A stretch of DNA of 64,000 nucleotides from an uncultured Syntrophus sp. (GTDB lineage: Bacteria; Desulfobacterota; Syntrophia; Syntrophales; UBA8958): positions 139,648-203,647 of the forward strand of contig CAZNDG010000001.1 of NCBI GenBank assembly GCA_964571695.1, in the 5' to 3' direction. The notes below the pieces were generated by a model. That model was not told where the DNA came from and did no database searches. It saw nothing but the letters and a program-made list of their open reading frames with translations. Within the stretch, counting starts at the first letter, position 1; each line of letters starts with the position of its first letter. Positions 3,994 through 44,429 of this stretch are shown one piece after another. The translations under genes and the position numbers were made by a program.

Positions 3994-6140
3994 CAGTATA
4001 AATCACCGTATCTTTCCGACCATCTTGATTCCTGGACGGCATAATCGCTCAGTTTCGTCCAGAAAGGATCCGTACTGCCATCCTTTATTTGCAGAAAACT
4101 CCTTTCCGCCGCCGCCGGCTCTTTTGATTCCATATGACGGCGTCCGATCTCGAAGAGCAACCAGCGACGCCGTATGCCGTCGGTCCCGGCCAGGGATTTC
4201 TCGATCATTTCCATCGACGCCCGATGTTTTCCATCTTGTTCGGCTCCCGTCTCCTGAAACTGAACTTCGGAATAGGCACTGCCGGGGGTTTGAACCATGG
4301 ACTCCATGATCTTGGCGATTTGGGATTGCCATTGGGCATCCACGGATATTGTCTTTGCGTAATTCAACACCCGCAGCGTTTCGTCATTCAGAGACATCCT
4401 GTGGAGTGAATCCGCAATCTTCAGGAGGGGGCCCGAGTCTTCCCGGTTAAAGGCAATGCGTCCGAAGGTTCGACAATAAAGGGAGGCAATCGCCACATAA
4501 TCTCCCTGAGCGTGTAGATCTTCGACCAATTTAATCACCGCGGTTTTCAGTTGTTGCTTGGCAGCCGTTGAATCCTTGCCGTCGGGATATTTATCCTGCA
4601 ACAGCAGGTAATTGGCAACGGTATCAAGGTATCGTCCTTTTTTGAATAAGGTCTCGGACTTGGCAAAACGGATCCTCTCATCCAGATCTTTTTCCGGTCG
4701 CTGGGACAGGAGCAGATCATAAGCGGCCAGAGGGTCTTCGTAATAACCCCCTACGGCAGGATAGACAGGTAAGCGGAGCCCGGGATTCTTGACCCCCAGG
4801 TTCGCTATCTTAAGAATGCTTTCCCGTGCCTCCGGGGAGGCGGCATACCTTTCCACAACCTCGTTGAATATCTTTATGGCGGTAGGAAATTGCTCCAATT
4901 GTTGAAAACAGGAACCAAGAAGATACAGCCCTTTGCCCGCCTTCTCGTCCTGGGGGTAGAGGCTCAAATAGGTGGAGACGATCCGGACCGCTTCGGCGTA
5001 TCTCCCCTTGCGATATGTTGCCTCAGCCATTAGATAAAGTGTTTCTTTAGGAATATCCGATATATCATTCTTTTCTGAAATGATATTTTCATAAAGCTTC
5101 ATGGCGTTGTCGAGATCATTCATCTGGACATAGGCATCCGCCAAATGCAGGGCAGCGGTTTTGCTGTGCACTCCCTGCCTATATTTATCCAAATAAAGCC
5201 TGTAATTCTCCGCTGCCTGCTCGTAGCGCTTCACCTCCCCATGCGCCTCCGCCAATTGGAACAGTGCTTCCTCGGCATGCGCGGATTCCGGATATTGCAA
5301 CAAGAGCTTCTTCAAGGCGTCAGCCGCCTCGTAGTAGAATTTCAGGGCCCTGTAACTTCTGGCCAGGTTCATATAAGCCAAATCGTTGCCTTCCCTTTGA
5401 TCTGGGTAATGCTGGATGATGTATTTATAGTGATCCACAGCGGAAAAGAGAAAGGGGTTGGCGCCGTTGCGACCGATGGACAGATAACAGTCCGCCACCC
5501 TGCGTATGGACTGTTCATAAGCTACCGGATCGGCGGGTATTTGACGCATGACCTGGCGGAACAGTTCGGCCGCGGCCGGGAAATCACCTGCTTCGTATTT
5601 CTTCATGGCCTCGGCAAACAGTGGATTGGAGCTTGACGCCGGAGAAGAATTCACGGTTGTGACGCCGGTAACAGTCCCTTTCTCCGCATTAGCCGCGGAC
5701 GCCTCTTTCTTGGGGATGCTTACGCCAACATTTTGACGTGCCTTTCTTTCATCACTAACTGTTTTTGCCCGTCTCTTTTCATCCCCGACCTTTTCCGTCG
5801 CTGCCGCGACCTCTTTCATGACGGCCTGCGGATAAGCCTGCCTTATCTTTCCCAGGGCCACGGCGGCATCCTTTTTATTCTTATGCCTCCCGATCCTGAT
5901 TGCATATGCCTTCCCGTCCTTCTGAACCCAGAAGCCTTTCACTTCACGCCTTTCCAAGTCCTTGATCATTTTCTGCACGTTGTCCGTTTCCGTGAGGAAG
6001 GCGATCTGAACGGTCCAAATCCTGGCCGGTGCGGAAACGGCCCTTCCAGGCATGGCCAGGGCCGGCAGACACACCGTCATGAAAGCCACAAAGATGTTGA
6101 TGAATATCGATGCTGTCGATTTGTTGATCATTCGTGACAA
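3993..6140 (-). CDS. Exported SPOR-like + multi-TPR repeat protein
   Basis: 715 aa. The N-terminal signal peptide is ...FVAFMTVCLPALAMPGRA. A SPOR-like segment reads WTVQIAFLTE...AYAIRIGRHKNKKDAAVALGKIRQAYP. Many TPR-like A/Y/L repeats follow (e.g. AEATYRKGRYAEAVRIVSTYLSLYP). Confidence 0.7.
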   Translation of the reverse strand: MSRMINKSTASIFINIFVAFMTVCLPALAMPGRAVSAPARIWTVQIAFLTETDNVQKMIKDLERREVKGFWVQKDGKAYAIRIGRHKNKKDAAVALGKIRQAYPQAVMKEVAAATEKVGDEKRRAKTVSDERKARQNVGVSIPKKEASAANAEKGTVTGVTTVNSSPASSSNPLFAEAMKKYEAGDFPAAAELFRQVMRQIPADPVAYEQSIRRVADCYLSIGRNGANPFLFSAVDHYKYIIQHYPDQREGNDLAYMNLARSYRALKFYYEAADALKKLLLQYPESAHAEEALFQLAEAHGEVKRYEQAAENYRLYLDKYRQGVHSKTAALHLADAYVQMNDLDNAMKLYENIISEKNDISDIPKETLYLMAEATYRKGRYAEAVRIVSTYLSLYPQDEKAGKGLYLLGSCFQQLEQFPTAIKIFNEVVERYAASPEARESILKIANLGVKNPGLRLPVYPAVGGYYEDPLAAYDLLLSQRPEKDLDERIRFAKSETLFKKGRYLDTVANYLLLQDKYPDGKDSTAAKQQLKTAVIKLVEDLHAQGDYVAIASLYCRTFGRIAFNREDSGPLLKIADSLHRMSLNDETLRVLNYAKTISVDAQWQSQIAKIMESMVQTPGSAYSEVQFQETGAEQDGKHRASMEMIEKSLAGTDGIRRRWLLFEIGRRHMESKEPAAAERSFLQIKDGSTDPFWTKLSDYAVQESRWSERYGDLY

Positions 6141-6188
6141 TCCCTGCTGTGACGGCTATGCAACCCTACATCCCTTCACGAGAGATTT

Positions 6189-6204
6189 TGCAATTAACAT
6201 ACCA
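6189..6204 (-). promoter_or_regulatory. Sigma-54 promoter upstream of the SPOR/TPR-HK-EBP operon
   Basis: The minus strand reads TGGTATGTTAATTGCA (TGG-N8-TTGCA). It lies about 50 nt upstream of the ATG at 6140. Confidence 0.6.
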
Positions 6205-6267
6205 CCATCATTCAAATATTCTTTTAAAGCGCCAATTCATGGGAAACCGTGTTCCGGACGGCATACA

Positions 6268-6283
6268 TGGCGTGTAGTTTGCA
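6268..6283 (+). promoter_or_regulatory. Sigma-54 promoter upstream of pilZ-motA-motB
   Basis: The plus strand reads TGGCGTGTAGTTTGCA (TGG-N8-TTGCA). It lies about 45 nt upstream of the ATG at 6328. Confidence 0.65.
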
Positions 6284-6327
6284 TCTGTATAGCTCATAAT
6301 TACATCCGGAAAGGGAAACCGGCACTT

Positions 6328-6873
6328 ATGGATCAACCTGGAGAGCCTTTTGTCAATCGTCGGGAATACTCCCGGGTCTATGCGTATATCCCCATCGGGT
6401 ACCGAATTATCCAGCCCGACGAGCACCATTCGTCCCTTCACGCCCGGATATCCGGAGATACCGCTATTTCGGACTTCAAACTGCTGCCGGAAATGGAAGA
6501 TTTCCAACTGGGCGAATGGTTCAAGATACTGAATAAAAAACTGGATATGATCATCAGACTGCTTACTGTTCAAAGCGAAGGGTTCCAGTTGTTGCCCTTC
6601 AAGGCGGTAAACATCAGCGGCAGCGGCATCAGTTTTTCTGTCCACGAATCCTTCCAGGCCGGTGATATCATTGAATTGAAGATGATCCTCGCCAGCGCCC
6701 AGTCTTTCCCCATCTACCTTTATGCCTACGGGGAAGTGAAGAAGGCGGAGAGGCAAACGAGCGGCAACGTTGTTTCCGCCAAATTCATCAACATGGATGA
6801 CGCCATCCGTGATGAGATCATCCGTTTCGTTTTCGAGCGGGAACGGGAGATCATCAGGGAAAAAAGGAAATAG
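6328..6873 (+). CDS. PilZ domain protein (putative c-di-GMP receptor, YcgR-like context)
   Basis: ORF track gives 6052..6873, but the 5' part overlaps the divergent gene, so I start at the ATG at 6328 (MDQPGEPF...). The PilZ motifs are RREYSR (RxxxR) and NISGSGISF (NxSxxG). Confidence 0.75.
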   Translation: MDQPGEPFVNRREYSRVYAYIPIGYRIIQPDEHHSSLHARISGDTAISDFKLLPEMEDFQLGEWFKILNKKLDMIIRLLTVQSEGFQLLPFKAVNISGSGISFSVHESFQAGDIIELKMILASAQSFPIYLYAYGEVKKAERQTSGNVVSAKFINMDDAIRDEIIRFVFEREREIIREKRK

Positions 6874-6890
6874 TCCCAAAGGTAATGTAA

Positions 6891-7748
6891 ATGCTGGTGA
6901 TTATCGGTTTCATAATCGTCATTGCCTCGGTCGTCGGCGGCTATCTGATGGAGCAAGGCAACCTCTCCGTTCTGTTCCAGCCCGCTGAATTGGTGATCAT
7001 CGGCGGGGCCGCCATCGGTTCCTTCATCATCGCCTCCCCGATGAAAACCGTCAAGTCGGTCATCCAAGGCATGCTGGGAGTGCTGCGCAGTAAAACCTAT
7101 GGCAAAGATGATTACCTCGAGGCCATGCTGCTCTTGAACGGCATCTTCTACAAGATCCGTCAGCAGGGCCTGGTAGCCATCGAATCCGACGTTGATGAAC
7201 CGGAAAAAAGCGCTCTTTTCAACCGCTTTCCCGGCATATTGAAAAACAACCGGGCCATGGGACTCATCACCGACACGTTGCGCATGGTCATGACTACCAC
7301 CATCGCTACCCATGAGTTGGAATCCCTTCTGGAAAGTGAAATTGACACCCATTTTGAAGAGATGATGACCCCTTCCAAGACCGTAACCTTCATTGCCGAC
7401 GGTCTGCCGGGCCTTGGTATCGTGGCCGCGGTTCTCGGGGTCGTGTTGACCATGGGAAAGATCGGCGCCCCGCCGGAAATCCTGGGCCACAGCATTGGCG
7501 CCGCCCTGGTGGGCACCTTTCTCGGGGTGCTGCTTTGCTATGGCTTCGTAGGTCCCATGGGGAGGCATATGGAACACTCCGTCCAGGAAGAGCTGCAATA
7601 TCTCAACGTCTTCAAAGTGGCGCTGGTGGCCTTTGTGGGCGGCGCCGCGCCGAAGGTAGCACTGGAATTCGGACGGCGGGTCATTCCCCACGACAGCAAA
7701 CCGTTGTTCAGCGAGGTGGAAAACATCCTCAGACAGGCAAAGAAATAG
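6891..7748 (+). CDS. motA: Flagellar motor stator protein MotA
   Basis: 285 aa. MLVIIGFIIVIASVVGGYLMEQGNLSVLFQPAELVIIGGAAIGSF... shows the four-TM MotA/TolQ/ExbB architecture. It is followed immediately by motB. Confidence 0.9.
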   Translation: MLVIIGFIIVIASVVGGYLMEQGNLSVLFQPAELVIIGGAAIGSFIIASPMKTVKSVIQGMLGVLRSKTYGKDDYLEAMLLLNGIFYKIRQQGLVAIESDVDEPEKSALFNRFPGILKNNRAMGLITDTLRMVMTTTIATHELESLLESEIDTHFEEMMTPSKTVTFIADGLPGLGIVAAVLGVVLTMGKIGAPPEILGHSIGAALVGTFLGVLLCYGFVGPMGRHMEHSVQEELQYLNVFKVALVAFVGGAAPKVALEFGRRVIPHDSKPLFSEVENILRQAKK

Positions 7749-8573
7749 ATGGAAGACCGCAATGTAATTATCAGGAAGGTAAAAAAGAGGAGGGTTCACG
7801 AGAGCCACGGCGGTTCCTGGAAGGTGGCCTATGCCGACTTCGTCACGGCCATGATGGCTTTCTTCCTCCTGTTGTGGCTGATCACCATGGTTTCACCGGA
7901 GAAAAGGCTTTCCGTATCCGAATATTTCAAGAATTTCAATATTATAAGGGAACAAACCGCGGGATCGAAAGGCCTCATGGACAAACAGCAAGCCTTGATC
8001 GGGGAACAGAAGGGGGCGATCAGAACCGGCATGCAGGAGCAGACCGGGAAATCGAAACAGGACATTGCCGGCAAGCTGAAGCACGCCGTCGATGAAAAGC
8101 TCCATAATTACAAGGATCAAATCTACATCGACATCGTCGATGGCGGCGTACGGATTCAGGTCGTGGATACGGAAGGGAGCACCATGTTCCCTCTCGGCAG
8201 TGCCGAACCGACGGACAAGGCAAAACAGATCATCGGCATCATTGCCGAAAACACAAGGGACCTGCCGAATAAAGTGGCGATTGAAGGCCATACCGATGCG
8301 GCGCCCTTCCGGGGCTCCCAGACCACCAACTGGGAACTGTCCACCTCCCGGGCTTCCGCCGCCCGGCGGGAAATGGAAAAGAACGGTACCGATCCGATGC
8401 GCATCGCCCGGGTGGTCGGTTATGCGGACCAGGAGCTTTACAATCGCGACAATCCGAGGGATCCGAAAAACCGCCGCATCAGTATCACCGTCATTACCAA
8501 TCCCGGCCAACCGTTGCCGCCGGGGGTGATAACTCCACAGGCGCCGGCGCCCGCCCCCTCATCCCGGCCATAG
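7749..8573 (+). CDS. motB: Flagellar motor stator protein MotB (OmpA-like C-terminal domain)
   Basis: 274 aa. ...GGSWKVAYADFVTAMMAFFLLLWL... is the plug/TM segment with the conserved Asp. The C-terminal OmpA-like peptidoglycan-binding region reads IEGHTDAAPF...NWELSTSRASAARREM. Confidence 0.9.
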   Translation: MEDRNVIIRKVKKRRVHESHGGSWKVAYADFVTAMMAFFLLLWLITMVSPEKRLSVSEYFKNFNIIREQTAGSKGLMDKQQALIGEQKGAIRTGMQEQTGKSKQDIAGKLKHAVDEKLHNYKDQIYIDIVDGGVRIQVVDTEGSTMFPLGSAEPTDKAKQIIGIIAENTRDLPNKVAIEGHTDAAPFRGSQTTNWELSTSRASAARREMEKNGTDPMRIARVVGYADQELYNRDNPRDPKNRRISITVITNPGQPLPPGVITPQAPAPAPSSRP

Positions 8574-8786: not shown

Positions 8787-9254
8787 CTATTCCTTGCGGC
8801 TCAGGCAGACGTCCACTACGAACGACCCGGAATCCGTATCGAAGGGGATGATGATGCTCGGACCTCCCATGACGTGAAGGATGGAATGGTTCCGCCCCGA
8901 AACGACCGTCGGGATGGCGGCGGTGATGCTGTAACCGGAGGCTTCCATTTTTTTCCTGGCTACACCGGATACCATGTTGGTAAGCTCGCCGACCGCGTCC
9001 TTGATATCGCCGTTCATGTCGGTAATGGTTTCTCCCAGCATGTTTGCGACGATCTTCAGGATGGCCCCCTCACTGAAGCTCAGTGCCAGGGAACCCCGGG
9101 CGTCCCCCGTCAGGCCGATTATCCCGGAAATATCGCCCTTGGCGGCGTTGTCATTTTTCAGATAAGGCTTGCCCGGCAGCGGCTCCACGAAAGCCATCGT
9201 TTTGAGCACCTCCACCGTCGCCTCCAGGAAAGGGTTGATAAATGCTACGTTCAT
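8787..9254 (-). CDS. cheX: CheY-P phosphatase CheX
   Basis: 155 aa. MNVAFINPFLEATVEVLKTMAFVEP...GDISGIIGLTGDARGSLALSFSE... matches the CheX/CheC-family fold pattern. It is adjacent to cheY. Confidence 0.8.
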   Translation of the reverse strand: MNVAFINPFLEATVEVLKTMAFVEPLPGKPYLKNDNAAKGDISGIIGLTGDARGSLALSFSEGAILKIVANMLGETITDMNGDIKDAVGELTNMVSGVARKKMEASGYSITAAIPTVVSGRNHSILHVMGGPSIIIPFDTDSGSFVVDVCLSRKE

Positions 9255-9284
9255 TATTTTTACCTCGCGTCCTTATTGTATTCG

Positions 9285-9668
9285 TCAATCCGCTCCAAGT
9301 ATCTTTACGATCTTTTCATTCAACGTCTCGGCGGTAAAGGGTTTCACGATATAATTACTTACACCCGCCTTGACGGCCGCAATCACGTTTTCCTGCAACG
9401 CCTCCGCCGTCACCATGAGAAAAGGCGTCTTGGCCAGATCCGCATCGGCCCGCACCGCCTTGAGGAGCTCCAGGCCGGTCATGTTCGGCATATTCCAGTC
9501 CGCGATCACAAAGTCTATTTGCTGCGATTTTAGCACCCGCAAACCGATCGATCCATCCTCGGCCTCGACAATATTCTCGAATCCGATCTGTTTCAAAATG
9601 TTTCTGATCACCTTGCGCATGGTGGCAAAATCGTCGACAACCAGTATCTTGATATTCTTGTCCATCAA
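9285..9668 (-). CDS. cheY: Chemotaxis response regulator CheY
   Basis: 127 aa single REC domain. Motifs are [31 protein letters not shown] and NYIVKPF. Confidence 0.92.
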
Positions 9669-10153
9669 TCCTCCCGAGTAAATTGCTCATCGTTCATCAT
9701 CAAGACCGCCTCAAAATATCCACCGCCGTCCCCATCGAAAGCCACATAGACCACACCCTCTCCCGTACCGCCAGCCGCGGTGCCTGCCGCGGGCTCACCA
9801 TAAATAGGCAGGCCCATTTTGAAAAGGCGGTCGGGATTGTATTTCTGGAGAAAATCTCCACAAATCATGTTCAAACATTCCTTGAGGCAATCCTGTCGGA
9901 TCGGCTCCGTAACCTCTTCACGATCGAGATTCAGGGAATTGGCGATCATCTGTTGCGCCAGGCCTTCAGAAAAAAAAACGACTATATTGCCTGTTGCCGG
10001 TCCCGAAAAAGATATGTTCAAAACCCTTTCGCGCCGTTCCGGCAAATGTCTTTCTCTTCCTTCGAGGAAAACATAATACATCTTTTCAAAGACCTCATAG
10101 ACCGCGTTGTTGAATATCTTCCTTAGCTCCTGTATGTTCATCGCCCCCCCCAT
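9665..10153 (-). CDS. CheX/CheC-like domain protein (divergent)
   Basis: 162 aa. Layout resembles CheX-like proteins (N-terminal helix ...[13 protein letters not shown]..., then ...[28 protein letters not shown]...). It overlaps cheY by 4 nt. The assignment rests on pattern resemblance only. Confidence 0.45.
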
Positions 10154-10186
10154 AAATGTCTCGATCGCTTTTTCCCGCCACCCTGG

Positions 10187-11035
10187 CTAATTTACAATAT
10201 GGAGAAGTTCATTTGCCTGCTCCAACTCGTCAAAGAGGACCAACATGCTCTCCTCCAGATCGTTCTCCTTCAATCCGTATTTGTGCATCACTTCACTGAT
10301 GCCGCGGTGGGCCAGGCCATCCATGCCACCATCGATTCCCATCATGAGACAAAATTGATCGGCGATATAAACGAGACTGGGGATCATGGTATCGCCCGAA
10401 AGGATGCGATCGGGTCGGTGGTGATAGGCGATTGCATCATGAATCTCCGGAGGGAAATTCCAATACACCGCAACCCGCCCCCCCAACTCCGCATGATTGA
10501 TCCCGATGACGGCCTCTTCCGCCTCGAGAAATGAATATTTACCCGAATCCATAAGCTCGAAGATCTTTTGCGAAGACTCCTGGACATACTCGCCCATGAC
10601 CAGTTTTCCCACGTCATGGAGCAATGCCGCTGTGTACAATACCGTATCCTCCTTCCGGGCAATCCGGCGGCTGAGGATCTGCGACATCAGGGCAACCGCG
10701 ATGGAATGCTCCCAAAGTTCCCTGGTCTTCATACCGTATCCGGCTGAGCGTTTGGAAAAAATCCGGCTGACGCTGGCTGTCTGCAGCGCCCGGACAAGAT
10801 TCTTCTGCCCCAGGTAGATCACGGCGTCATGAATGGACCTTATCTTCTGGCGGACTCCGAAGTATGCGGAATTGCTAATTTTAAGAATATTTGCAGCGAT
10901 TCCCTGATCGTATTTGATCACGTTGACAACATCGTTGACGGCATAATCTTCATTCTTCAGCAGTTCCGAAACTTTATGTACCGTGGTGGGAAAAGCCGGC
11001 AATTGTTTGATGGACAGGAGTATCTTTTCTATCAT
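10187..11035 (-). CDS. HDOD domain protein
   Basis: 282 aa. ...LPAFPTTVHKVSELLKNEDYAVNDVVNVIKYDQGIAANILKISNSAYFG...AVIYLGQKNL...LLHDVGKLVM... is the typical HDOD pattern. Its ATG abuts the cheD stop. Confidence 0.8.
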   Translation of the reverse strand: MIEKILLSIKQLPAFPTTVHKVSELLKNEDYAVNDVVNVIKYDQGIAANILKISNSAYFGVRQKIRSIHDAVIYLGQKNLVRALQTASVSRIFSKRSAGYGMKTRELWEHSIAVALMSQILSRRIARKEDTVLYTAALLHDVGKLVMGEYVQESSQKIFELMDSGKYSFLEAEEAVIGINHAELGGRVAVYWNFPPEIHDAIAYHHRPDRILSGDTMIPSLVYIADQFCLMMGIDGGMDGLAHRGISEVMHKYGLKENDLEESMLVLFDELEQANELLHIVN

Positions 11036-11518
11036 TCAAAGCTCCTTCGCCATGCCGCCCGAGGTCCGGACAAAACATTTGCCGTCGGCAATTTGAAGAC
11101 GAACGGTGCGGTTGTAATTCTGGCCTGTATCTTCAGAATCGACCATCACATTGTTCTTCCAGAAGATCTTTCGGACGGCGGTGATATTCTTCTGACCGAT
11201 TCGAAAATAATCCCCATCATTCAGGATGCTGGCGCCTCCGGCGATCTTGACTATCATCCGCCTCTTTTCGGCCCCCAGGGCATAGCAGGATTTGAAAAGC
11301 AGCGGGATGCCCGTATCGGCGAACATGGCCGGACATTCGGACGCCTTCTTCTTATCGAGATTCGAGTCCGGCAGCATGAAGTGGAGCAATCCCCCAACCA
11401 TCGCCATCGGATCGAAAACAACAACGGCAATGCAAGAACCCAAGGCATAAGTCACAAGGACATCGCCGGGTTTTTTGCTGCAATTGAAGTCGGATATGCC
11501 GATAATAACATCGCCCAT
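11036..11518 (-). CDS. cheD: Chemoreceptor glutamine deamidase CheD (copy 1, intact)
   Basis: 160 aa. ...LVTYALGSCIAVVVFDPMAMVGGLLHFMLP...VKIAGGASIL...IGQKNITAVRKIF...DTGQNYNRTVRLQIADGKCFV shows the catalytic Cys/His context of CheD. Confidence 0.9.
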   Translation of the reverse strand: MGDVIIGISDFNCSKKPGDVLVTYALGSCIAVVVFDPMAMVGGLLHFMLPDSNLDKKKASECPAMFADTGIPLLFKSCYALGAEKRRMIVKIAGGASILNDGDYFRIGQKNITAVRKIFWKNNVMVDSEDTGQNYNRTVRLQIADGKCFVRTSGGMAKEL

Positions 11519-11553: not shown

Positions 11554-11569
11554 TGCAAATCGAGGACCA
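11554..11569 (-). promoter_or_regulatory. Sigma-54 promoter upstream of the cheD-HDOD-cheX-like-cheY-cheX unit
   Basis: The minus strand reads TGGTCCTCGATTTGCA (TGG-N8-TTGCA). It lies about 37 nt upstream of the cheD ATG at 11518. Confidence 0.6.
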
Positions 11570-11642: not shown

Positions 11643-13010
11643 TTATAGGCGTTTCAGTTTTTCTACGAGGGTCGTTCGTTTCAAGTTCAGCATCTTTGCG
11701 GCTTTGTTCTTGACGCCTCCACACTTTTCGAGGGCCTTGAGGATCAATTCCCTTTCATATGCGATCAGCATCTTGTTGAAATCAACCCCTTCTTCGGGAA
11801 GATCAACCTCACTTGTCGCCGGTTGCTCCCGCTTCTGCTTTCGAATCTTGCTGGGCAGATCATCTATTGTAACAACACCGTTTTCTTTCATAACCACCAG
11901 CATTTCAATGAGATTTTCCATCTCCCGCACGTTTCCCGGCCAGTGATAAGAGTTCAGGGCGCCCAAGGCTTCCTGATCGATGCGAATGACGTTCTTTTTC
12001 TTTTGCTGATTGAATTTCTTCAGGAAATGATTGGCCAGAATCGCCATATCCATTCCCCTTACCCGGAGGGGGGGTAAAAAGATCGGGATGACATTTATCC
12101 GGTAGTAAAGGTCCTCACGAAACCTTTTGGCCGTCACCAGTTCATCGAGATCCTGATTGGTGGCGGTGATGATCCTTACATCGGCAGTCATGGTTTTGAC
12201 GCCGCCGATTCTTTCGAACTGCTTTTCTTGAATCACCCGCAATAACTTTACCTGAAGCGCCGGAGACATGTCGCCGATCTCATCCAGGAATATGCTTCCT
12301 CCCTGGGCCAGTTCAAATCTTCCGATCCGCGTCCGAATGGCCCCGGTAAAGGCCCCCTTCTCATGCCCAAAAAGTTCGCTTTCCAGGAGTTCCTCGGGTA
12401 TGGCTCCGCAGTTCACGGCAACCAGCGGCCGGTATCGCCGATCACTGTTGAAATGTATCGCCTGAGCCACCAGTTCCTTTCCCGTGCCGCTTTCGCCATG
12501 GATCAGGACGGTGCTGTCCGTCTTGGCAACCTTTTCTATCTTCTCGAAGACTTTTTTCATCGAATCGCTGTAACCGATCATTTTACCAAAATCGAACTTG
12601 TCCTGCAGTCGGTCCTTAAGGTCGATGTTCTCTTCCTTAAGCCTGGCAAAAGACAAAGCCCGGGATACGGTAAGCCGGACCAGGTCGTCTTTTAGGGGTT
12701 TGGTAATATAATCGAAGGCCCCGATCTTCATGGCATCGACGGCCGTTTGAACGCTGCCGTATCCGGTCACGAGAATAATGAGCTGGTCGGCATTGAGCTC
12801 TTTGATTTGCCTCAATAACTCCAGGCCGTCCATATTAGGCATGCGGAGATCGGTGATGATGAGATCATAGCTGTCATGGCCAAAAGCATCCAACGCCTGC
12901 CGTCCATCCCCTACACCATGGGTCTCATAACCGCAGGATTCCAGCAGTTCCTGCAAATTCTGCAAATTCAGATCATCGTCTTCGGCAATTAAGATCTTGA
13001 AGGCCTTCAT
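11643..13010 (-). CDS. Sigma-54-dependent response regulator (NtrC family EBP)
   Basis: ORF track gives 11643..13052 (TTG). I prefer the ATG at 13008-13010 (MKAFKILIAEDDD...), but the start is uncertain. It has a REC domain, an AAA+ domain (GESGTGKE, GAFTGA) and a C-terminal HTH (AAKMLNLKRTTLVEKL). Confidence 0.9.
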   Translation of the reverse strand: MKAFKILIAEDDDLNLQNLQELLESCGYETHGVGDGRQALDAFGHDSYDLIITDLRMPNMDGLELLRQIKELNADQLIILVTGYGSVQTAVDAMKIGAFDYITKPLKDDLVRLTVSRALSFARLKEENIDLKDRLQDKFDFGKMIGYSDSMKKVFEKIEKVAKTDSTVLIHGESGTGKELVAQAIHFNSDRRYRPLVAVNCGAIPEELLESELFGHEKGAFTGAIRTRIGRFELAQGGSIFLDEIGDMSPALQVKLLRVIQEKQFERIGGVKTMTADVRIITATNQDLDELVTAKRFREDLYYRINVIPIFLPPLRVRGMDMAILANHFLKKFNQQKKKNVIRIDQEALGALNSYHWPGNVREMENLIEMLVVMKENGVVTIDDLPSKIRKQKREQPATSEVDLPEEGVDFNKMLIAYERELILKALEKCGGVKNKAAKMLNLKRTTLVEKLKRL

Positions 13011-13184
13011 GTTATGAACATCAAGCTCCACATTCGTTCCAAAAGCGAACAAAGATATTTTTCCGCGTCAATGAGATGACATACTTCGTCAACAATCACT
13101 CGATGTCAAGATATTTTTTCGTCGCGGAAACAAAAGTTTCCCCGGTAACGACTTGGTTTATTTAGAAAACGCCCTTACATTTCC

Positions 13185-13200: not shown

Positions 13201-13307
13201 AACACTCTTTATCATATAAATAGACCGGCACCCCTGAGTCCTTTCCGGGCGAATGGGCATTGAAACGAAATATTATTATGATCATGATTCGAAAGGAGCC
13301 ACACAAA

Positions 13308-15188
13308 ATGAAAAAGGGTTTTTCACTAAATCAGAAAATGATGGCCGGCGGCATCCTTACGGTGTTGATACCGCTCCTGGTAATCGGTGGATTCGCGGCG
13401 GTCATGTCCTCCCGTTCGCTGAAGGAAATGTCTTACCAACAGTCGTCAAACGTCGCCAAGAGTCTTGCCGAGATGGTGGAACTCTCCATGATTGAAGAGA
13501 CAAAAATGGTAAAGGGTCTGACCGTTGACCCGGCGCTAAAGGATGCCGCCGCGGGAAGGACGGAGGCCGCCATAAGCAAACTCACATCGATGATAAAAAC
13601 GATCGGAAATGATTACGAGGTCCTTTTTGTCGCCGATACCACGGGCCTGATCCGTGCCGACGGCGTAGGCGGATCTTATCAGGGAATAAATATCGGCGAC
13701 CGGGACTATTTCATCAATGCCAAGGCCGGCAAGGCCAATGTGGGAACACCCATAAAATCGAAAAAGACGGGTAATCCCGTGGCGGTGGTCGCCGCCCCCA
13801 TCTTTGACAATTCCGGCACTTTCACAGGCATTGTCGCCGCCGCCCTCAAAATCGATTTTCTGATCGAAAGGATCACGGCCCTGAAAGTCGGCAAAACCGG
13901 TTATGCCTTTATGGCCGACAAGAACGGAACCGTAATCGCCCATCCCAACAAGGAATTCATCCTGGAACTAAATTTGAAAAACATTCAGGGGATGGAGAAC
14001 ATCTCGGCCCAGATGCTGGCCCAGAAAGCAGGGACGGAGGAATATGTCTTCAAGGGGGTAAAAAAGATTGCCGGATACTCCCCGGTGCCACTCACCGGCT
14101 GGACCGTCGCCATGACCCAGAACGAAGATGAATTCATGTCCACGGCTCATCTCATCCGCAACACCATCATCTTCATCGCCCTGGTTTTCCTGTCCCTGAC
14201 CATTCTCGTCGTGTACTTCTTCTCCCGGAGCATCTCCCGCCCCATCACCCGGGCCACCTATCAATTGACGGAAGCGGCGGCGCAGGTCTCCACGGGGTCC
14301 GACGAGGTATCAGCTTCCAGTCAGGCCTTGGCGGAGGGCGCCTCTGAACAGGCCTCGGCCCTTGAAGAGACATCCTCGTCCCTGGAGGAGATGTCGTCCA
14401 TGACCAAACAAAACGCCGGCAATGCCTCGGAGGCGGACGGTCTCATGAAACAGACCAACCTGGTGGTCAAAAAGGCCAATGATGCCATGAAGGATTTGAC
14501 CAATTCCATGCAGGATATTACCTCTGCCAGCGAGGAGACCTCCAAAATTATCAAGACCATCGATGAAATAGCATTCCAAACCAACCTCCTGGCCTTGAAT
14601 GCCGCCGTCGAAGCGGCACGGGCCGGAGAAGCGGGCGCGGGCTTCGCCGTCGTTGCCGAGGAGGTGCGCAACTTGGCGATGCGGGCCGCTGAAGCCGCCA
14701 AAAACACTTCCCAGCTCATCGAAGACACGGTAAGGAAGATCCGCGACGGGTCCGAAATCGTGGGCAAGACGAACGAGGCCTTTGCCGCCGTGGCGACCAA
14801 CGCCTCCAAGGTTGGCGAGCTGGTCGGCGAAATCTCCGCCGCCTCCAATGAACAGGCTCAGGGCATCGATCAGATAAACAGGGCGGTGGCCGAAATGGAC
14901 AAGGTCACCCAGCAGACGGCCGCTTCCGCGGAAGAGTCGGCATCCGCATCCGAAGAGATGAACGCCCAGGCCACCCAGATGAAGCAAATCTCCCTGGAAC
15001 TGCTCGATATTATCGGCGGTCAAGGAGCGGCTTACGACGACGGACTGAATCGCCCGAAGGTAAAAACGGATAAAAAGAAGGCGCTTGCCTGGTCGGCGGC
15101 ATTGAAGCCCGGCGGCAAAACAAAGGCCGTGTCGACCGGAAAATTGAAGAAGCTTCCGGAACCGAACGGTGATTTCAAGGATTTTTGA
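13308..15188 (+). CDS. Methyl-accepting chemotaxis protein with periplasmic dCache-like sensor
   Basis: ORF track starts at 13260. I start at 13308 ([10 protein letters not shown]...) because AAGGAG lies 8 nt upstream. The order is TM, a Cache-like region (...[19 protein letters not shown]...[17 protein letters not shown]...), TM, HAMP, then the MCP signalling domain ([38 protein letters not shown]). Confidence 0.9.
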
Positions 15189-15202
15189 TCAGCCGGTGAA
15201 GT

Positions 15203-16036
15203 ATGACCTATTCGGAACTACGTGATAAAGAGTTCGAGAAAATCAGCAAGCTGGTTTATGAACTCTGTGGGATCAACCTCCATGACGGCAAGAAGGAGCT
15301 CGTCAAGGCAAGGCTGGGGAAACGACTCCGGGAAGGGCAATTCAAGTCCTTTGCCGAATATTTCCGGTACGTCACCACGCCCGAAGGCAGCGATGAACTG
15401 ATCACGATGATCGATTCGCTCTCCACGAATTTAACCTACTTTTTTCGAGAGGATAAACACTTTCAAAGGCTGAAATCCATTCTGCCTCAAATCGTCCGGT
15501 CCGACAAGAGCCTTACGGCGCCCAGATTGAAGATCTGGTGCGCCGGATGCTCCACCGGAGAGGAGCCGTACTCCCTGGCGATAACCGTCAAAGAGTTACT
15601 GGGAAACGACATCGCCGGTGCAAAAATCATCGCCACGGACATCTCCACGCGGGTGCTAAAGACGGCACTCAGTGGCATCTATACGGAAGAAAAAATAAAA
15701 AAGATACCCAAAGACATCTTGCGCCGTCATTTCCAGTACGGCACCGGCACTTCCGCCGGCTTGTTCCGGGTAAAACAGGAACTTCGCCAACTTATCGATT
15801 TTCGGCGCTTCAACCTCATGGAACTGCCGCCGGCTGAATTTCGCTGCGACATTATCTTTTGCCGCAACGTAATGATCTATTTTGATAAAGCAACCCAAAA
15901 CAGCCTTGTCAACAGGTTTTTCGACTGCCTGAACAAGGGGGGTTATCTTTTCGTCGGCCATTCCGAAAGTCTGACGGGGCTGAAACATGACTTCACCTAT
16001 ATTGAACCGAGCATCTACAGAAAGACTAACAAATAG
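15203..16036 (+). CDS. cheR: Chemotaxis protein methyltransferase CheR
   Basis: 277 aa. ...TNLTYFFRE..HF... followed by IWCAGCSTGEEPYSLA (SAM-binding) and IFCRNVMIYFD. Confidence 0.92.
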   Translation: MTYSELRDKEFEKISKLVYELCGINLHDGKKELVKARLGKRLREGQFKSFAEYFRYVTTPEGSDELITMIDSLSTNLTYFFREDKHFQRLKSILPQIVRSDKSLTAPRLKIWCAGCSTGEEPYSLAITVKELLGNDIAGAKIIATDISTRVLKTALSGIYTEEKIKKIPKDILRRHFQYGTGTSAGLFRVKQELRQLIDFRRFNLMELPPAEFRCDIIFCRNVMIYFDKATQNSLVNRFFDCLNKGGYLFVGHSESLTGLKHDFTYIEPSIYRKTNK

Positions 16037-16111
16037 GATCGCCCCATGCCGGCGCCGGCGCCGGCCGCACCAGGAAAGAGCGTCACCATTTAAAAAAATG
16101 GAGAAGAATAA

Positions 16112-16546
16112 ATGTCCTGTAATGTTCTGATCGTTGACGATTCGCTTTCCATGAGATCAGTAATCCGCAAAATCATCACTCTTTCCAAATTCGACGTCGC
16201 CGCCTTTCATGAAGCGGCGAACGGAAGAGAAGCTCTGGACGCACTTGCATCGTCCTGGATCGACGTCGTCATTACGGACATCAATATGCCGGTAATGAAT
16301 GGCATCGAACTGATGCAGGAGCTTGGAAAAGACGATCTGTATCGAAACATTCCGGTTATCGTGGTTACCACCGAAGCCAACCGGGAGCGCATTGAAGAGG
16401 CGGCCCGTCTGGGTGCAAAGGGGTTTCTGAAGAAACCCTTTCTTCCCGAGGAACTCAAACATATCCTCCAATCCGCCCTCGGGCTTGAAAAATATGGAGA
16501 TTATCCGGAAAGGGATGAAATCGAAGGCGAAGATCTCGATTTCTAG
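16112..16546 (+). CDS. CheY-like single-domain response regulator
   Basis: 144 aa. REC motifs are VLIVDDSLSMR, VITDINMPVMNG, VIVVTTEA and FLKKPF, with an acidic C-terminal tail. Confidence 0.85.
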   Translation: MSCNVLIVDDSLSMRSVIRKIITLSKFDVAAFHEAANGREALDALASSWIDVVITDINMPVMNGIELMQELGKDDLYRNIPVIVVTTEANRERIEEAARLGAKGFLKKPFLPEELKHILQSALGLEKYGDYPERDEIEGEDLDF

Positions 16547-16557
16547 AAATCAGTCCT

Positions 16558-18106
<1,549 letters not shown>

Positions 18107-18108
18107 CA

Positions 18109-20316
18109 ATGGATTACGAAAAACTTTCAAGCCTTGTTGACCGTATGGCGTCCGATTTCCTTTTCCTCAGCACCCGTGAGCTCGATATTCCATCCGCAGG
18201 CGGCTTCCTGAACACATTGGAAGGCATAACCGAAGCGGCCACCCAGATCCAACTGGCACCGGTTCTGAGGGTGGGAGTCGCCATGAATCACCTCCTGGAA
18301 CAGATCATTATGGACAGTGTCGGTGACAAGGCCGGCGGCTTTGAACTTTTTGAAAGAGGTATATCGTTGTTGCAGGAAATCGTGCGTGATTACCAGCACA
18401 AGGAGGGCTATGAGAACGATGGGTGCATCGATATCTACCTCAAGTCCATCAGCGGCCTTACGGGTTTTCAGGAAGGGCGGGAAGCCATAGAGAAATCGGA
18501 CAGCGCGGAGGAAGGGCAAACACTGACAACGGCGGCCGCCTCCCTCCAGGAGCAAGATGAAGGTCTCCTCAGGGATTTCATCACCGAGTCACTCGAATAC
18601 ATAGAACAGATCGAGGTTAATATTCTCAATCTGGAGCAAAATCCGGAAGACAAGGAATTTATCAATGCCATCTTCCGTCCCTTTCATTCCATAAAAGGGG
18701 TGGCCAGTTTCTTGAATCTCGATACGATCCGAGACCTCTCCCACTCCCTGGAAAACCTCCTCGACAAAGCCCGTAACGGCGAACTCCGCGTCTCACCGCC
18801 GATTATTGACGTCATCCTGGACGGCGCCGATGCCCTGAAGTCATTGATAGGACAGGTCAGAAACGAACTGGATGGAAAGGCGATCGCCGGAGAAGCTGAC
18901 GATTTGACCGATTTGCTGAACCGCATCCATAAACTCGATCAAGGTGAGGAGATAATACCAGTCGCCAAGCTGGTGGGCGAAATTCTCCTGGAAGATGGGA
19001 TGATCACCAAAGACGCCCTAAATGAAGGCTTGAAGGTCTCTGCGGAAAAGCCGGGCAAAAAAATCGGCGAGACGCTCATCACTGAGGGGCTGGCCACGCC
19101 CAAACAAGTAACCCGGGCACTGAGAAAGCAGGCGGAGCAAATAACCGATACAACCACGATACGAGTGGACATCCGCAAGCTCGATGATATGATCGACATG
19201 GTTGGAGAACTGGTCATCAGCCAGTCGATGATCGAGCAGGATATCAGCAACCAGTTGACCACGGACAGGAATCTCATGAGGAATATCGCCCAGCTATTCC
19301 GTATCACCTCCGGTCTGCAGCGGGCGACGACAAGTCTGCGGATGATTCCCATCAAACAGGCATTTCAACGCATGTCCCGCCTGATTCGCGACCTCGCCAA
19401 AGACAGCGGTAAGCTTATAGCCGTCGAGTTGGTCGGAGAGGATACTGAAATCGACCGGAACATGGTGGATGAAATCTACACGCCCCTCGTTCACCTTGTC
19501 CGCAATGCCGTGGATCACGGCTTGGAAGTACCCGCGGAACGTCTGGCGGCGGGCAAGGAGGAAAAGGGGCAGATCAAACTCAAGGCCTATCATCGGGGCG
19601 GCAATATCGTCATCGAAATCTCGGACGACGGACGCGGTTTAAATCGGGAAAAGATTTTGTTTAAAGCACTGAGCAACAACCTGATCCAGGATGGAGAGGT
19701 GCTCTCCGACCAGGAAATATACCGGATGATCCTCCTGCCCGGACTCTCCACGGCTGACAAAATCACCGACGTTTCCGGACGAGGGGTGGGAATGGATGTC
19801 GTCAAGCAGGCCGTCGACAAGTTGCGCGGCAAGATTGAGATCTCCTCCTCCCTGGGCGTTGGTACCACCTTTACCACAAGCTTCCCCCTTACCATGGCCA
19901 TTATCGACGGCATGATTGTAAAAGTGGGACGCCAACGCTACATCCTGCCCACGACGGCTATCCGACAAGCCCTCCGGCCAACCAGAGAATCCTGTTCCAA
20001 TGTGGTGGGAAGAGGCGAGATGATCAATGTCATGGGTCATCTCCTGCCTCTGATGCGACTCGGCGAATTGTTCAATGTCGAGACAACTCCAAAGGAACCA
20101 TGGGAATCCATAATCGTGGTTATGGAAGGAGACGGCCGTGCCAAAGGACTGATGGTCGATGAAATATTGGGCAAAGCCGAAGTCGTCATAAAAAGTCTGG
20201 GCGACGGCATCAAGAATATCAAGGGGATTGCCGGAGGAGCGATTCTCGGGGACGGGCAAATTGGGTTGATCATAGACACGGAAGGATTGTTTACCTTGAG
20301 CGAATCGATGTCCTGA
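18109..20316 (+). CDS. cheA: Chemotaxis histidine kinase CheA
   Basis: 735 aa. The Hpt domain carries FRPFHSIKGVASFL. The dimerisation and HATPase domains carry HLVRNAVDHGLE, DDGRGL and GRGVGMDVV. A C-terminal CheW-like domain follows. Confidence 0.95.
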   Translation: MDYEKLSSLVDRMASDFLFLSTRELDIPSAGGFLNTLEGITEAATQIQLAPVLRVGVAMNHLLEQIIMDSVGDKAGGFELFERGISLLQEIVRDYQHKEGYENDGCIDIYLKSISGLTGFQEGREAIEKSDSAEEGQTLTTAAASLQEQDEGLLRDFITESLEYIEQIEVNILNLEQNPEDKEFINAIFRPFHSIKGVASFLNLDTIRDLSHSLENLLDKARNGELRVSPPIIDVILDGADALKSLIGQVRNELDGKAIAGEADDLTDLLNRIHKLDQGEEIIPVAKLVGEILLEDGMITKDALNEGLKVSAEKPGKKIGETLITEGLATPKQVTRALRKQAEQITDTTTIRVDIRKLDDMIDMVGELVISQSMIEQDISNQLTTDRNLMRNIAQLFRITSGLQRATTSLRMIPIKQAFQRMSRLIRDLAKDSGKLIAVELVGEDTEIDRNMVDEIYTPLVHLVRNAVDHGLEVPAERLAAGKEEKGQIKLKAYHRGGNIVIEISDDGRGLNREKILFKALSNNLIQDGEVLSDQEIYRMILLPGLSTADKITDVSGRGVGMDVVKQAVDKLRGKIEISSSLGVGTTFTTSFPLTMAIIDGMIVKVGRQRYILPTTAIRQALRPTRESCSNVVGRGEMINVMGHLLPLMRLGELFNVETTPKEPWESIIVVMEGDGRAKGLMVDEILGKAEVVIKSLGDGIKNIKGIAGGAILGDGQIGLIIDTEGLFTLSESMS

Positions 20317-20392
20317 CGCCCTGCCGGCGTACTTCCCCATAGGATTATCCATTCGCTCATCGATATAAATATGAATGCAAAGGAGAATGGAC

Positions 20393-20908
20393 ATGACGGA
20401 CGACACAATCAAGACGTTAGATGAAAAAATCAAGCACAGCAAAGACCGGGAAGGGAAATACCTCACCTTCGTCCTGGCGGGAGAAGAATACGGCATCGGC
20501 ATCCTGAAGGTAAGAGAAATTATCGGTATGATGACCATAACCACGGTCCCCCAAACTCCATTATATGTCAAAGGCGTAATCAATCTGCGCGGCAAGGTTA
20601 TACCCGTAATGGATTTGAGGCTGAAGTTCAACATGCAAGCCATGGAATACACGGAGAGAACCTGCATTATCGTGGTGGAAATAACGGGTCCGATGCGGAA
20701 GATTCCCATGGGCATCGTCGTGGATTCCGTTTCCGAGGTACTCAACATCAAGGCTTCGGATATCGAGGAGACCCCCAATTTTGGCAACAAACTCGAGACG
20801 GACTACATCCTCGGCATGGCTAAAACCGGCGGCGGGGTAAAGATACTCCTGGACATCGATAAAGTTCTGAACAACGAAGAATTGACGGCGCTGGAAAAGG
20901 CCGCCTGA
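20393..20908 (+). CDS. cheW: Chemotaxis coupling protein CheW
   Basis: ORF track gives 20375. I prefer the ATG at 20393 (MTDDTIK...) with AAGGAGA 7 nt upstream. ...YLTFVLAGEEYGIGILKVREIIG...VINLRGKVIPVMDLR... is the CheW pattern. Confidence 0.9.
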   Translation: MTDDTIKTLDEKIKHSKDREGKYLTFVLAGEEYGIGILKVREIIGMMTITTVPQTPLYVKGVINLRGKVIPVMDLRLKFNMQAMEYTERTCIIVVEITGPMRKIPMGIVVDSVSEVLNIKASDIEETPNFGNKLETDYILGMAKTGGGVKILLDIDKVLNNEELTALEKAA

Positions 20909-20944
20909 GAATAATTTAATTCTATAAAAAGGGGGAATGGATAA

Positions 20945-22156
20945 ATGACACTCAATCAGAAATTGTTTCTCGGCAGCAGCGCAAGCGCGGTACTGATACT
21001 TTTTGGCGGCATCATGGGTTATCTGAGCACCGGCGAGTATCTGACCAATTTAATCAGCAAAGGCACAACAATGACATTGCTGGCGACGGGAACGGCTTTA
21101 GGCGCCATTCTTGCGTTTGGAATCGGCTTCATGATCTCACGATCCATCAGCGGCGCGATCAAAGGAACGGTTGACGGCCTTTCCGACAGTACGGCCCAGG
21201 TTTCCTCCGCTTCATCTCAGGTTGCTTCAGCCAGCCAGAGTCTCGCGGAAGGCGCCTCCGTCGCCGCCTCGGCGATTGAGGAAACGTCTTCATCCCTCGA
21301 GGAAATGTCATCCATGACGAAGAAAGCAATGGATAATTCAAGTTTGATGACAAAGACGGGGGACATAACTTTCGCACTTATGAAAAGCTCTCACAAGTCG
21401 CTCCGGGAAACAGACACCTGCATGAAGCGCATCGGCGAATCCGGCGCCGAAGCGGCAAAAATCATCAAAACGAGTGACGAGATAGCTTTTCAGATCAACC
21501 TTCTGGCCTTGAACGCCGCCGTCGAGGCCGCCCGGGCCGGTGAGGCGGGGGCGGGTTTTGCCGTCGTTGCCGAAGAAGTACGCAATCTCGCCATGCGCTC
21601 GGCGGAAGCGGCCAGAAACACCGAATCGATCATCGGAGAGATGTCTCGGGAGATCAAGGAAGGGATGAACCTCGTCGCAAAAACCCTGGAAGAGTTTTAC
21701 AAAATGGGCGACGAGGGCAAGAAAACCAACACCCTCATCAAAGAGATAGATTCCGCCATGCAGGAACAGGCCCAGGGCATAGAACAAATCAATCGGGCCA
21801 TTGCCGAAATGGATAAAATAACCCAGCAGTCGGCAGCCAATGCCGAGGAAACGGCCAGCGCCGCCGAGGAACTATCCGCCCAGGCCGCCCAGATGGAATC
21901 CCTTGTAACCGAGATCTATTCCGTAATAGGCGGAGGGGCAAGAGGTGATGGCTTCTCGCATTCATATCGGATCACGGGTCAGGCAATCACTAATTCCGAG
22001 GCAAGCCTTGCGCCGGCCGGAAGAGGCGGCAAAAAGTCGCTCCCCTATCCGGGCGGAAAGGAAGGGGCATACGGTGTTGCCGGACATGCAAGGAGCACCG
22101 TTGTTCGACCGGATCAGATCATTCCTCTGGAAGAGGAAGAAGCGAAATCTTTTTGA
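20945..22156 (+). CDS. Methyl-accepting chemotaxis protein, membrane-hairpin type without periplasmic sensor
   Basis: 403 aa. Two closely spaced N-terminal TM segments are followed directly by the signalling domain ([38 protein letters not shown]). Confidence 0.85.
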
Positions 22157-38348: not shown

Positions 38349-38438
38349 GAGGCTCCTGATGATCATCAAGGCAGAAAGCAAAAACCATTACGCGCAAGGA
38401 AGTTTTGCATTCGTTCCAAACGACTGACGAGCAAGACT

Positions 38439-42179: not shown

Positions 42180-42350
42180 ACCTTTGTTCAGCGTACGACG
42201 GCCGGGCTCCGGTTGCGGCCAAGGATGGAGATTCAGGCATTCAAGGCATTTCACGCCACCCTCAGTCAATGCCTTTATCGGATAACCCTATAAGCAAAGC
42301 CGCTTCGAGCGGCGGCCCATCTTCTTACCCCGGGACGGCGATCTTTGGGG

Positions 42351-43274: not shown

Positions 43275-43369
43275 TGATTAGAACTCCTTAAAATATTACT
43301 CTCGTCGGCATCCGCTTCGGATCCGATTATTTTCCTGCTCGCCCCGGCCGTTCCCGGGATAAACCACCG

Positions 43370-44377: not shown

Positions 44378-44429
44378 CTTTAAACATCTCCTGTCATTTC
44401 CTGTCCTTACATTATTCCAGCCGCCGTTC

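Follow-up and report, generated by a model that had tools for sequence, protein, structure and literature searches.

In the module that CheC, CheD and phosphorylated CheY (CheY-P) form in Bacillus subtilis and Thermotoga maritima, the receptor deamidase CheD is encoded beside an accessory partner and is complemented by a phosphatase of the CheC/CheX/FliY family (Rosario and Ordal, 1996; Chao et al., 2006; as listed in PMC2577667). Both features recur in the locus investigated in this study, a five-gene unit (8787-11518, minus strand) of a 64,000-nucleotide stretch from an uncultured Syntrophus sp., hereafter termed the window, where the gene of an HDOD protein (HDOD1) directly follows cheD and precedes two genes of the CheX family and a cheY. 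A related case concerns the group alpha chemotaxis clusters of Geobacter, which combine cheA, cheW, cheR and cheB with a stand-alone HD-domain gene and do not contain an mcp gene; Tran et al. (2008; PMC2577667) proposed that this HD-domain gene takes part in chemotaxis-like signalling and described the cluster as unique to the Geobacteraceae. HDOD itself has been tied genetically to motility in Pseudomonas, Xanthomonas and Campylobacter and recent screens, which record its effect on swimming, still list its function as unknown. Published catalysis tests on other HDOD proteins were negative or weak, and SadB illustrates an adaptor role. In the literature that we searched, no paper names HDOD together with CheX, none ties it to CheD and none assigns it a role with CheD, CheX or CheY, in agreement with the preliminary description of this stretch, which had regarded a role of HDOD with CheY and CheX as not established.

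The association of HDOD1 with CheD

The unit comprises, in the order of transcription and as assigned with Pfam, cheD (11036-11518; PF03975, E 2.4e-30, with an additional NCBIfam match), which encodes a receptor glutamine deamidase, HDOD1 (10187-11035), a CheX-like gene (9665-10153), cheY (9285-9668) and cheX (8787-9254). HDOD1 is a stand-alone protein of 282 residues that covers the entire PF08668 profile (positions 1-196 of 196, E 4.9e-58) and also matches the general HD model PF01966 (E 2.5e-12), and its identity as an HDOD protein is thus upheld by profile models, as it is for two further genes of the window that match PF08668. In the coordinates of the open reading frames (ORFs), the stop codon of cheD abuts the start codon of HDOD1 with no nucleotide between the two genes, both of which share the same reading frame. 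HDOD1 and the CheX-like gene are separated by 33 nt, the CheX-like gene and cheY overlap by 4 nt and 30 nt are found between cheY and cheX, so that the gene list of the preliminary description, with its gaps of 0-33 nt and 4-nt overlaps, proved to be accurate. An identical HDOD1 protein is contained in 76 blocks of public assemblies, where independent gene calls give the same neighbours, and a scan for promoter and terminator signals inside the unit returned none above chance.

The conservation of this arrangement was investigated in a census for which HDOD1 and 16 relatives were aligned (17 sequences) and one genome per species was scanned, yielding 80 loci at 30-90% identity, designated by L numbers below. 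Neighbouring genes were called with profile models built from the proteins of the window, and a sample of these calls was cross-checked against Pfam, which agreed in loci of Ignavibacteriaceae, Nitrospirales, Planctomycetaceae and Cloacimonadota. The resulting gene maps are highly uniform, with cheA-cheW-cheR-cheD-HDOD-cheY-cheX-cheB as the commonest order. Among the 75 loci with at least 500 nt of upstream sequence, 54 contain cheD directly upstream of HDOD on the same strand, and in 41 of these 54 the junction is identical and tight, with a 4-nt overlap in ORF coordinates. A small CheY follows HDOD directly in 35 of 76 loci and a CheX is located within 1.5 kb downstream in 36 of 68. Where both flanks are present (64 loci), CheD, CheY and CheX are found together in 29 cases, CheD alone in 10 and no che gene in 17, and in none of the 64 does CheY or CheX accompany HDOD without CheD. 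Moreover, one clade shows the order cheA-cheW-cheR-cheD-HDOD-cheB without CheY or CheX (L039, L044, L057, L060 and L063), and isolated cheD-HDOD pairs are found in L070, L074, L031 and L061. It is the frequent upstream position of cheD, the absence of CheY or CheX where CheD is missing and the persistence of the pair in clusters devoid of both that identify CheD as the constant partner of HDOD1, a place that the preliminary description had given to CheX and CheY. In one Nitrospirales locus (L073), the ORF upstream of HDOD (6333-7949) encodes 538 residues with a CheD domain confined to residues 426-529 and no Pfam match in the first 400, which would be compatible with either an over-extended ORF or a large N-terminal region.

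As judged from their record titles, the cheD-HDOD loci originate from Syntrophales, Desulfobacterales, Desulfobulbaceae, Syntrophorhabdus, Planctomycetota, Cloacimonadota, Ignavibacteriaceae, Nitrospirales, Hydrogenedentales, Neomarinimicrobiota, Krumholzibacteriia and Baltobacteraceae. Chemotaxis genes thus surround the HDOD1 subfamily in most of its relatives and in many phyla, as a census of gene neighbourhoods had been expected to reveal. In a neighbour-joining tree, the linked HDOD genes form one large group, from which a few nested lineages have left the cluster, and a clade from Syntrophomonas and Desulfosporosinus is never linked to che genes. The specificity of the association is illustrated by a comparison with the subfamily of a second HDOD gene of the window (HDOD2), since 63 CheD genes were counted in 0.99 Mb of HDOD1 loci compared to none in 0.60 Mb of 87 HDOD2-subfamily loci, which did not contain CheR or CheB genes either (Fisher p 5e-26, uncorrected for shared ancestry). 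By our own estimate, which assumes that a genome of a few thousand genes contains about three copies of cheD, less than 0.1 of the 75 upstream neighbours would be a cheD by chance.

Since our linkage counts are phylogenetically non-independent and 21 of the 75 relatives are found outside che clusters, one might suspect that the HDOD gene was merely carried along in an operon by inheritance while acting outside chemotaxis. We consider such lack of a functional tie to be scarcely credible, as the adjacency of cheD and HDOD, their orientation and their tight junction persist across Planctomycetota, Cloacimonadota, Ignavibacteriaceae and Thermodesulfobacteriota and have outlasted several rearrangements of the remaining cluster. 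By the evidence of gene neighbourhoods, the link between HDOD1 and chemotaxis is thus real and old, and its anchor is CheD and not CheX or CheY.

In view of this association, the most likely of the roles considered, which we regard as an evenly balanced proposition, is that of a dedicated accessory subunit in chemotaxis of the flagellar type, where HDOD1 would belong to the branch formed by CheD, CheX and CheY. Joint synthesis of CheD and HDOD1 is probable, given that the start of HDOD is joined to the stop of cheD. HDOD1 would most probably bind CheD, and probably also the CheX-like protein encoded downstream, and it would work in the branch that modifies the receptors and ends the CheY-P signal, where its place beside CheD would by analogy resemble that of CheC in Bacillus and Thermotoga. 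Its metal centre, described below, would either confer hydrolytic activity or render the interaction sensitive to metal or redox conditions. The earlier proposal that HDOD proteins act with CheY-P or its phosphatases is therefore retained with respect to the link to chemotaxis but not with respect to its centre, which is located on CheD instead of CheY or CheX.

Conserved sites of HDOD1 and its candidate partners

The sequences of the CheD, CheX and CheY proteins that accompany HDOD1 look functional. CheD of the window contains Thr23, Cys29 and His46, which correspond to the catalytic triad of the T. maritima enzyme, and the three residues are kept in 50, 50 and 53 of 56 HDOD-linked CheDs, respectively. 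The CheX-like protein (PF13690, E 8e-12), although a weaker match to the CheX family, is orthologous to the CheX found after HDOD and CheY in most relatives and is referred to as type-1 CheX. It contains one D-x3-E-x2-N site, and the active-site motif is intact in all 41 type-1 sequences. A single D/S-x3-E-x2-N site is found in 59 of the 61 CheX-family matches in the loci, the two exceptions being proteins of 153 and 484 residues, and none of the 61 is a two-site protein of the CheC type (about 200 residues). The second CheX of the unit (type 2, 8787-9254) is a member of the CheY-P phosphatase family with the motif DAVGELTN (PF13690, E 2e-26); the same profile also matches a long CheX encoded elsewhere in the window. 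The adjacent type-2 CheY (9285-9668) resembles the protein of Escherichia coli (REC, E 4e-28, with residues D12, D13, D57, T87 and K109) and scores 178.5 bits with the NCBIfam model of E. coli-type CheY, whose cut-off is 189. Residues D12, D13, D57 and K109 are invariant in an alignment of both types of CheY.

BLAST comparisons distinguish two CheY/CheX modules in the window. The type-1 module follows HDOD in most relatives, and its CheY is in the window encoded by a REC gene at 16112-16546, which belongs to a divergent operon and whose product is 53% identical to the HDOD-adjacent CheYs of L005 and L014. The type-2 pair of cheY and cheX (8787-9668) constitutes a separate module beside motAB, which in loci of the Smithella type closes the cluster on the side of motB. 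The usual partners in the HDOD1 family are the CheX-like protein and type-1 CheY, and not this pair, which the preliminary description had listed with HDOD1. The order in these loci is cheR, cheD, HDOD, cheY1, cheX1, cheB, cheA, cheY2, cheX2, motB, motA and PilZ, where numbers refer to the two types, and in comparison the layout of the window looks derived, as if cheR, cheY1, cheB and cheA had moved out of a Smithella-like cluster with cheD and HDOD still joined. In such a scenario, an ancestral single operon would have been split, leaving cheD-HDOD-cheX1 together with cheY2-cheX2 behind a sigma-54 promoter near motAB and PilZ, and cheR, cheY1, cheB and cheA would have been relocated to the divergent operon.

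The CheYs adjacent to HDOD carry an acidic C-terminal tail that ends in D-F, L-F or A-F, as illustrated by the terminal sequence EGEDLDF of type-1 CheY in the window. Such a tail was found in 28 of 39 loci compared to 2 of 24 other small receivers of the same loci; its distribution follows clades and it might serve as a docking peptide.

The partnership with CheY could also be of a different kind, with HDOD1 as the output partner of phosphorylated type-1 CheY, so that both proteins together would form a split response regulator that relays the signal to a target besides or instead of the flagellar switch. Fusions of REC and HDOD domains are established in GsmR, DVU0330 and MmoQ (present in the Protein Data Bank, PDB) and are also encoded by a gene in L061; in addition, the location of CheY directly 3' of HDOD in 35 of 76 loci and its own acidic D-F tail in 28 of 39 would be in accord with such a relationship. 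We nevertheless regard it as unlikely, since cheD-HDOD is retained in one clade whose clusters are devoid of CheY and since cheD and HDOD are still joined in the window after the move of type-1 CheY to another operon. A mirror-tree analysis based on p-distances and partial correlations, which is exploratory and to which we attach little weight, points in the same direction, with values of 0.45 for HDOD and type-1 CheX, 0.31-0.39 for HDOD and CheD and 0.10-0.18 for HDOD and type-1 CheY, the lowest of the three candidates, and with low values for CheB.

A second group of features concerns the HDOD1 protein itself. By sequence, its closest relative of known structure is 3HC1 from Geobacter sulfurreducens (E 1e-33), which holds two iron ions by means of five histidines and one aspartate (PMC12075610). 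Residues H110, H140, D141, H181, H205 and H206 of HDOD1 align with these ligands, and conservation at the six positions amounts to 97-100% among 59 linked and 19 unlinked relatives, a value that is unbiased only for four of them because the search pattern already contained H140 and D141. The HD model of Pfam and the HDIG model of NCBIfam both match above their cut-offs. A model of HDOD1 obtained with AlphaFold2 (pLDDT 88, pTM 0.90) conforms to the all-helical, HD-related fold of HDOD structures and has its best match in the PDB with 3HC1 (TM 0.76), with further matches to 3M1T, SadB (9QZK), 3MEM, 3I7A, MmoQ and Cj0248, and weak resemblance to PgpH, HD-GYP and PhnZ/TmpB proteins (Foldseek E 0.01-0.2, TM 0.2-0.4). 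HDOD1 thus carries the ligand pattern H...HD...H...HH of the HD superfamily and is predicted to contain a complete di-metal site, and the notion of HDOD as a domain without catalytic potential does not fit a subfamily that keeps the full ligand set of the di-iron protein 3HC1. A glycine-rich loop, MGIDGGMDGLAHR (residues 231-243), corresponds to the family pattern MGIGxGxDGLxxR (given as residues 231-244), which is kept in CheD-linked members and degraded in unlinked ones and which is the sole feature that separates the two groups. HDOD1 is not an HD-GYP protein, as the corresponding sequence reads HHRPDRILSGD with no GYP motif, HD_5 does not match and the similarity to 4MCW is weak (E 0.17). 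Long relatives of HDOD1, which were inspected as candidate fusions with CheD, are HDOD-HDOD, DUF4388-HDOD and zinc-ribbon-HDOD proteins instead.

The described site could make HDOD1 an enzyme, a di-metal phosphohydrolase of a small signalling molecule such as a cyclic or linear dinucleotide or another phosphoester, which would couple chemotaxis to the control of the motor by a second messenger, for example via the PilZ proteins encoded nearby. The full conservation of the ligand set, the matches to HD and HDIG models above cut-off, the weak structural likeness to PgpH, HD-GYP and PhnZ/TmpB proteins and the presence of PilZ and HD-GYP-like genes in the window would all be compatible with this role, as would the weak activity on bis-pNPP of the HDOD domain of DVU0330, which has kept its HD residues (PMC4114195). 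However, DVU0330 was inactive on cyclic di-GMP (c-di-GMP) and other substrates tried, GsmR was inactive, SadB did not bind c-di-GMP in Biacore experiments, HDOD1 contains no GYP motif and an enzymatic role would leave the specific joining to cheD unexplained. We thus consider it improbable that catalysis of this kind is the function of HDOD1. Even less probable, and in our view very much so, is a role as a sensor, in which a di-iron centre would read oxygen, nitric oxide or redox state and feed this information into adaptation via CheD or into signal termination. This possibility would be in line with the di-iron site in 3HC1 and the conservation of its ligands, with the largely anaerobic lineages to which the hosts belong by their record titles and with the lack of an own receptor gene in most clusters, as far as detected with a weak receptor model; it is purely inferential, as no feature specific for gases or redox was identified, and unlinked relatives keep the site. 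A role as accessory subunit and those as output partner, enzyme or sensor are not mutually exclusive.

Several observations weigh against HDOD1 as a dedicated accessory subunit acting with CheD. The census covers the 80 best-scoring relatives of HDOD1 and not HDOD as a whole, and the 21 of 75 relatives with no che genes nearby, including the clade from Syntrophomonas and Desulfosporosinus, have kept their metal ligands, which implies that an HDOD1-type fold also works outside chemotaxis. Fusions of CheD and HDOD were not encountered, and the 120 closest CheDs are all single-domain proteins. A receptor-mimic motif like the one by which CheC binds CheD was not seen in HDOD1 upon inspection by eye. 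The mirror-tree signal is weak, comes without a significance test and places type-1 CheX slightly above CheD. Finally, gene order cannot separate a physical partner from a protein of a shared pathway. We have nevertheless contemplated a more far-reaching version of the accessory role, which we regard as possible but doubtful, where di-iron HDOD would be an unrecognised standard part of a widespread chemotaxis system, forming a complex with CheD, and perhaps CheX, in place of CheC and tuning receptor modification or the lifetime of CheY-P, possibly by means of iron or redox. If true, metal-binding HDOD proteins would for the first time be given a mechanistic role, and bacterial chemotaxis would gain a new branch of adaptation.

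Organisation of the window around the unit

The cheD-HDOD unit is preceded by a box of the sigma-54 -24/-12 type (11554-11569, minus strand), TGGTCCTCGATTTGCA, which is located 35 nt before the ATG of cheD and which shows the GG-N10-GC spacing of a sigma-54 promoter with two mismatches to TGGCAC. On its own, this match is weak, because the window contains 8 copies of the loose motif TGG-N9-TTGC[AT]. It is supported by three orthologous loci (L001, L002 and L003), where a TGGYCY-N5-TTTGCA box precedes cheD and, in L001 and L003, has been kept despite divergence of the intergenic sequence around it. The box thus has the properties of a sigma-54 promoter and is predicted to act as such, with the gene of an enhancer-binding regulator adjacent, and its description ahead of cheD in the preliminary account has held up. 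The regulator, encoded directly upstream of cheD (11643-13052, minus strand), combines a REC domain with an AAA+ sigma-54 interaction domain and HTH_8, and a gene of this kind also adjoins the cluster in L001-L009, L014 and L023. On the opposite side, the unit is convergent with genes on the plus strand for PilZ (ORF 6052-6873, with the real start probably later), motA (6891-7748) and motB (7749-8573), all assigned with Pfam, an arrangement (6052-8573) that is repeated in L001-L008, L014 and L023.

Other clusters show flagellar neighbours as well. In one group of Desulfobacterales loci, the genes next after the cluster encode FlgK and a member of the flagellin family, presumably FlgL. FapA (PF03961) is encoded inside cheD-HDOD clusters of Ignavibacteriaceae and Planctomycetaceae (L049, 4281-5747; L022, 5926-7500; Pfam), and sequence clustering places its homologues also in loci of Planctomycetota, Neomarinimicrobiota and Hydrogenedentales (including L036, L051 and L076). 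Together, motAB, FlgK, the presumed FlgL and FapA suggest that the clusters encode a chemosensory system of the F-type. Other recurrent genes of unknown function in the clusters were confined to lineage-specific families.

The core chemotaxis genes of the window are contained in the divergent operon on the plus strand (13260-22156), which according to Pfam consists of an MCP gene (13260-15188), cheR (15203-16036), the type-1 cheY described above, cheB (17075-18106), cheA (18109-20316), cheW (20375-20908) and a second MCP gene (20945-22156). A paralogue of cheD (16558-17072) is located in this operon between type-1 cheY and cheB and changes reading frame within a stretch of nine A (16815-16823), which divides it in two. 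Its orthologue in L014 (8850-9359; 51-58% identity) is intact, and the split could reflect a homopolymer sequencing error, a pseudogene or expression that depends on slippage.

Both further HDOD genes of the window were correctly recognised in the preliminary description, and a REC and a CheX gene indeed precede the second of them. HDOD2 (26965-27846, plus strand; PF08668, E 8e-52) is part of a cassette on the same strand with a REC gene (25300-25695), a long CheX (25628/25703-26617), a small ORF (26601-26957) and, directly 3' of HDOD2, an MBL-fold gene (27853-28770). The long CheX combines a CheX domain, 61% identical to the type-2 CheX of the unit, with an extension of about 150 residues. 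HDOD2 shares 26% identity with HDOD1 and represents a separate subfamily, in which an MBL-fold gene follows directly downstream in 56 of 65 loci (from 80 metagenome loci); the pair is also found in genomes of Planctomycetota and Desulfobacterales, and six annotated contexts agree. REC and long CheX are located upstream in 5 of 35 loci (L089, L090, L092, L094 and L138), including those of two HDOD2 relatives at 44-47% identity. In light of these proportions, the link of HDOD2 to CheX is by its gene neighbourhood a minority arrangement, which exceeds chance for so rare a gene but which does not define the subfamily. The MBL protein weakly resembles RNase Z and a family of cyclic-nucleotide phosphodiesterases, in both cases with matches below cut-off. 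The third gene, HDOD3 (24130-24999, plus strand; PF08668, E 2.8e-9), is divergent and flanked by a YcgR-like PilZ gene on one side and by the REC/CheX cassette on the other; it reads LLYEVGK where the family has LLHDxGK and is thus a degenerate copy, in which Y-E replaces the H-D dyad. The recurrence of HDOD with REC and CheX in one window, from which a common function had been proposed, is therefore of little value as evidence, given the distance of HDOD2 from HDOD1, its MBL-fold partner, the lack of CheD in all 87 loci of its subfamily and the degeneration of HDOD3.

At 22222-23938, an HD-GYP-like gene (HD_5 and DUF3391, plus strand) ends within the 3' end of a convergent YcgR-like gene (PilZNR-PilZ, minus strand), and these two genes together with the PilZ gene at 6052-6873 make the region rich in motility genes related to c-di-GMP. 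The G+C content is 0.55-0.63 at about 38000-58000 of the window compared to about 0.50 in the chemotaxis region.

Comparison with known systems

HDOD is among the commonest bacterial signalling domains without a mechanism, and a single search returned more than 36,000 clusters (at 50% identity) of HDOD1 relatives. The subfamily joined to cheD offers a defined pathway, candidate partners in CheD, CheX and a CheY with a distinctive tail and a conserved metal site that can be mutated, and what HDOD does thus becomes a question for specific experiments. It also indicates that many little-studied phyla run chemotaxis with an extra component that is absent from the models of Escherichia and Bacillus.

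With respect to the CheC-CheD module, the candidate partnership described here differs in the HD-fold protein whose gene is joined to cheD in place of CheC, in the single-site CheX proteins that would act as phosphatases and in the gene order, with cheD followed by HDOD in place of cheC followed by cheD. In Borrelia burgdorferi, CheD reportedly also acts together with CheX as phosphatase, CheC being absent, and we know of no HDOD protein in that system. The same domain as in HDOD1 is found under the control of a receiver in REC-HDOD regulators, such as GsmR of Xanthomonas, which affects flagellar genes, DVU0330 of Desulfovibrio and MmoQ. In contrast to these regulators, HDOD1 is a separate protein with CheD as its constant neighbour, and it keeps all metal ligands, whereas GsmR lacks the conserved histidine. 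HDOD1 shares the identical set of five histidines and one aspartate with 3HC1, which, unlike the CheD-linked group, does not contain the GY...ELW and DGL motifs. In SadB of Pseudomonas, a YbaK-like domain precedes an HDOD fold that serves as a protein-protein adaptor and affects motility and surface behaviour (PMC12075610). Different from HDOD1, SadB has lost most metal ligands, contains this extra N-terminal domain, acts on the proteolysis of AmrZ and is not encoded in a che operon.

The nearest precedent is provided by the group alpha clusters of Geobacter, whose published description fits the HDOD1 clusters in gene content, with the 80 loci kept in our census including none from Geobacter. 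Unlike in this account, whose authors neither named HDOD nor made a connection to CheD, the HDOD1 type of cluster is distributed over many phyla. If the HD-domain gene of Geobacter is the same, the features that our study adds to the earlier proposal would be the breadth of the system across phyla, the identity of the protein as an HDOD with a predicted di-iron site and its junction with CheD.

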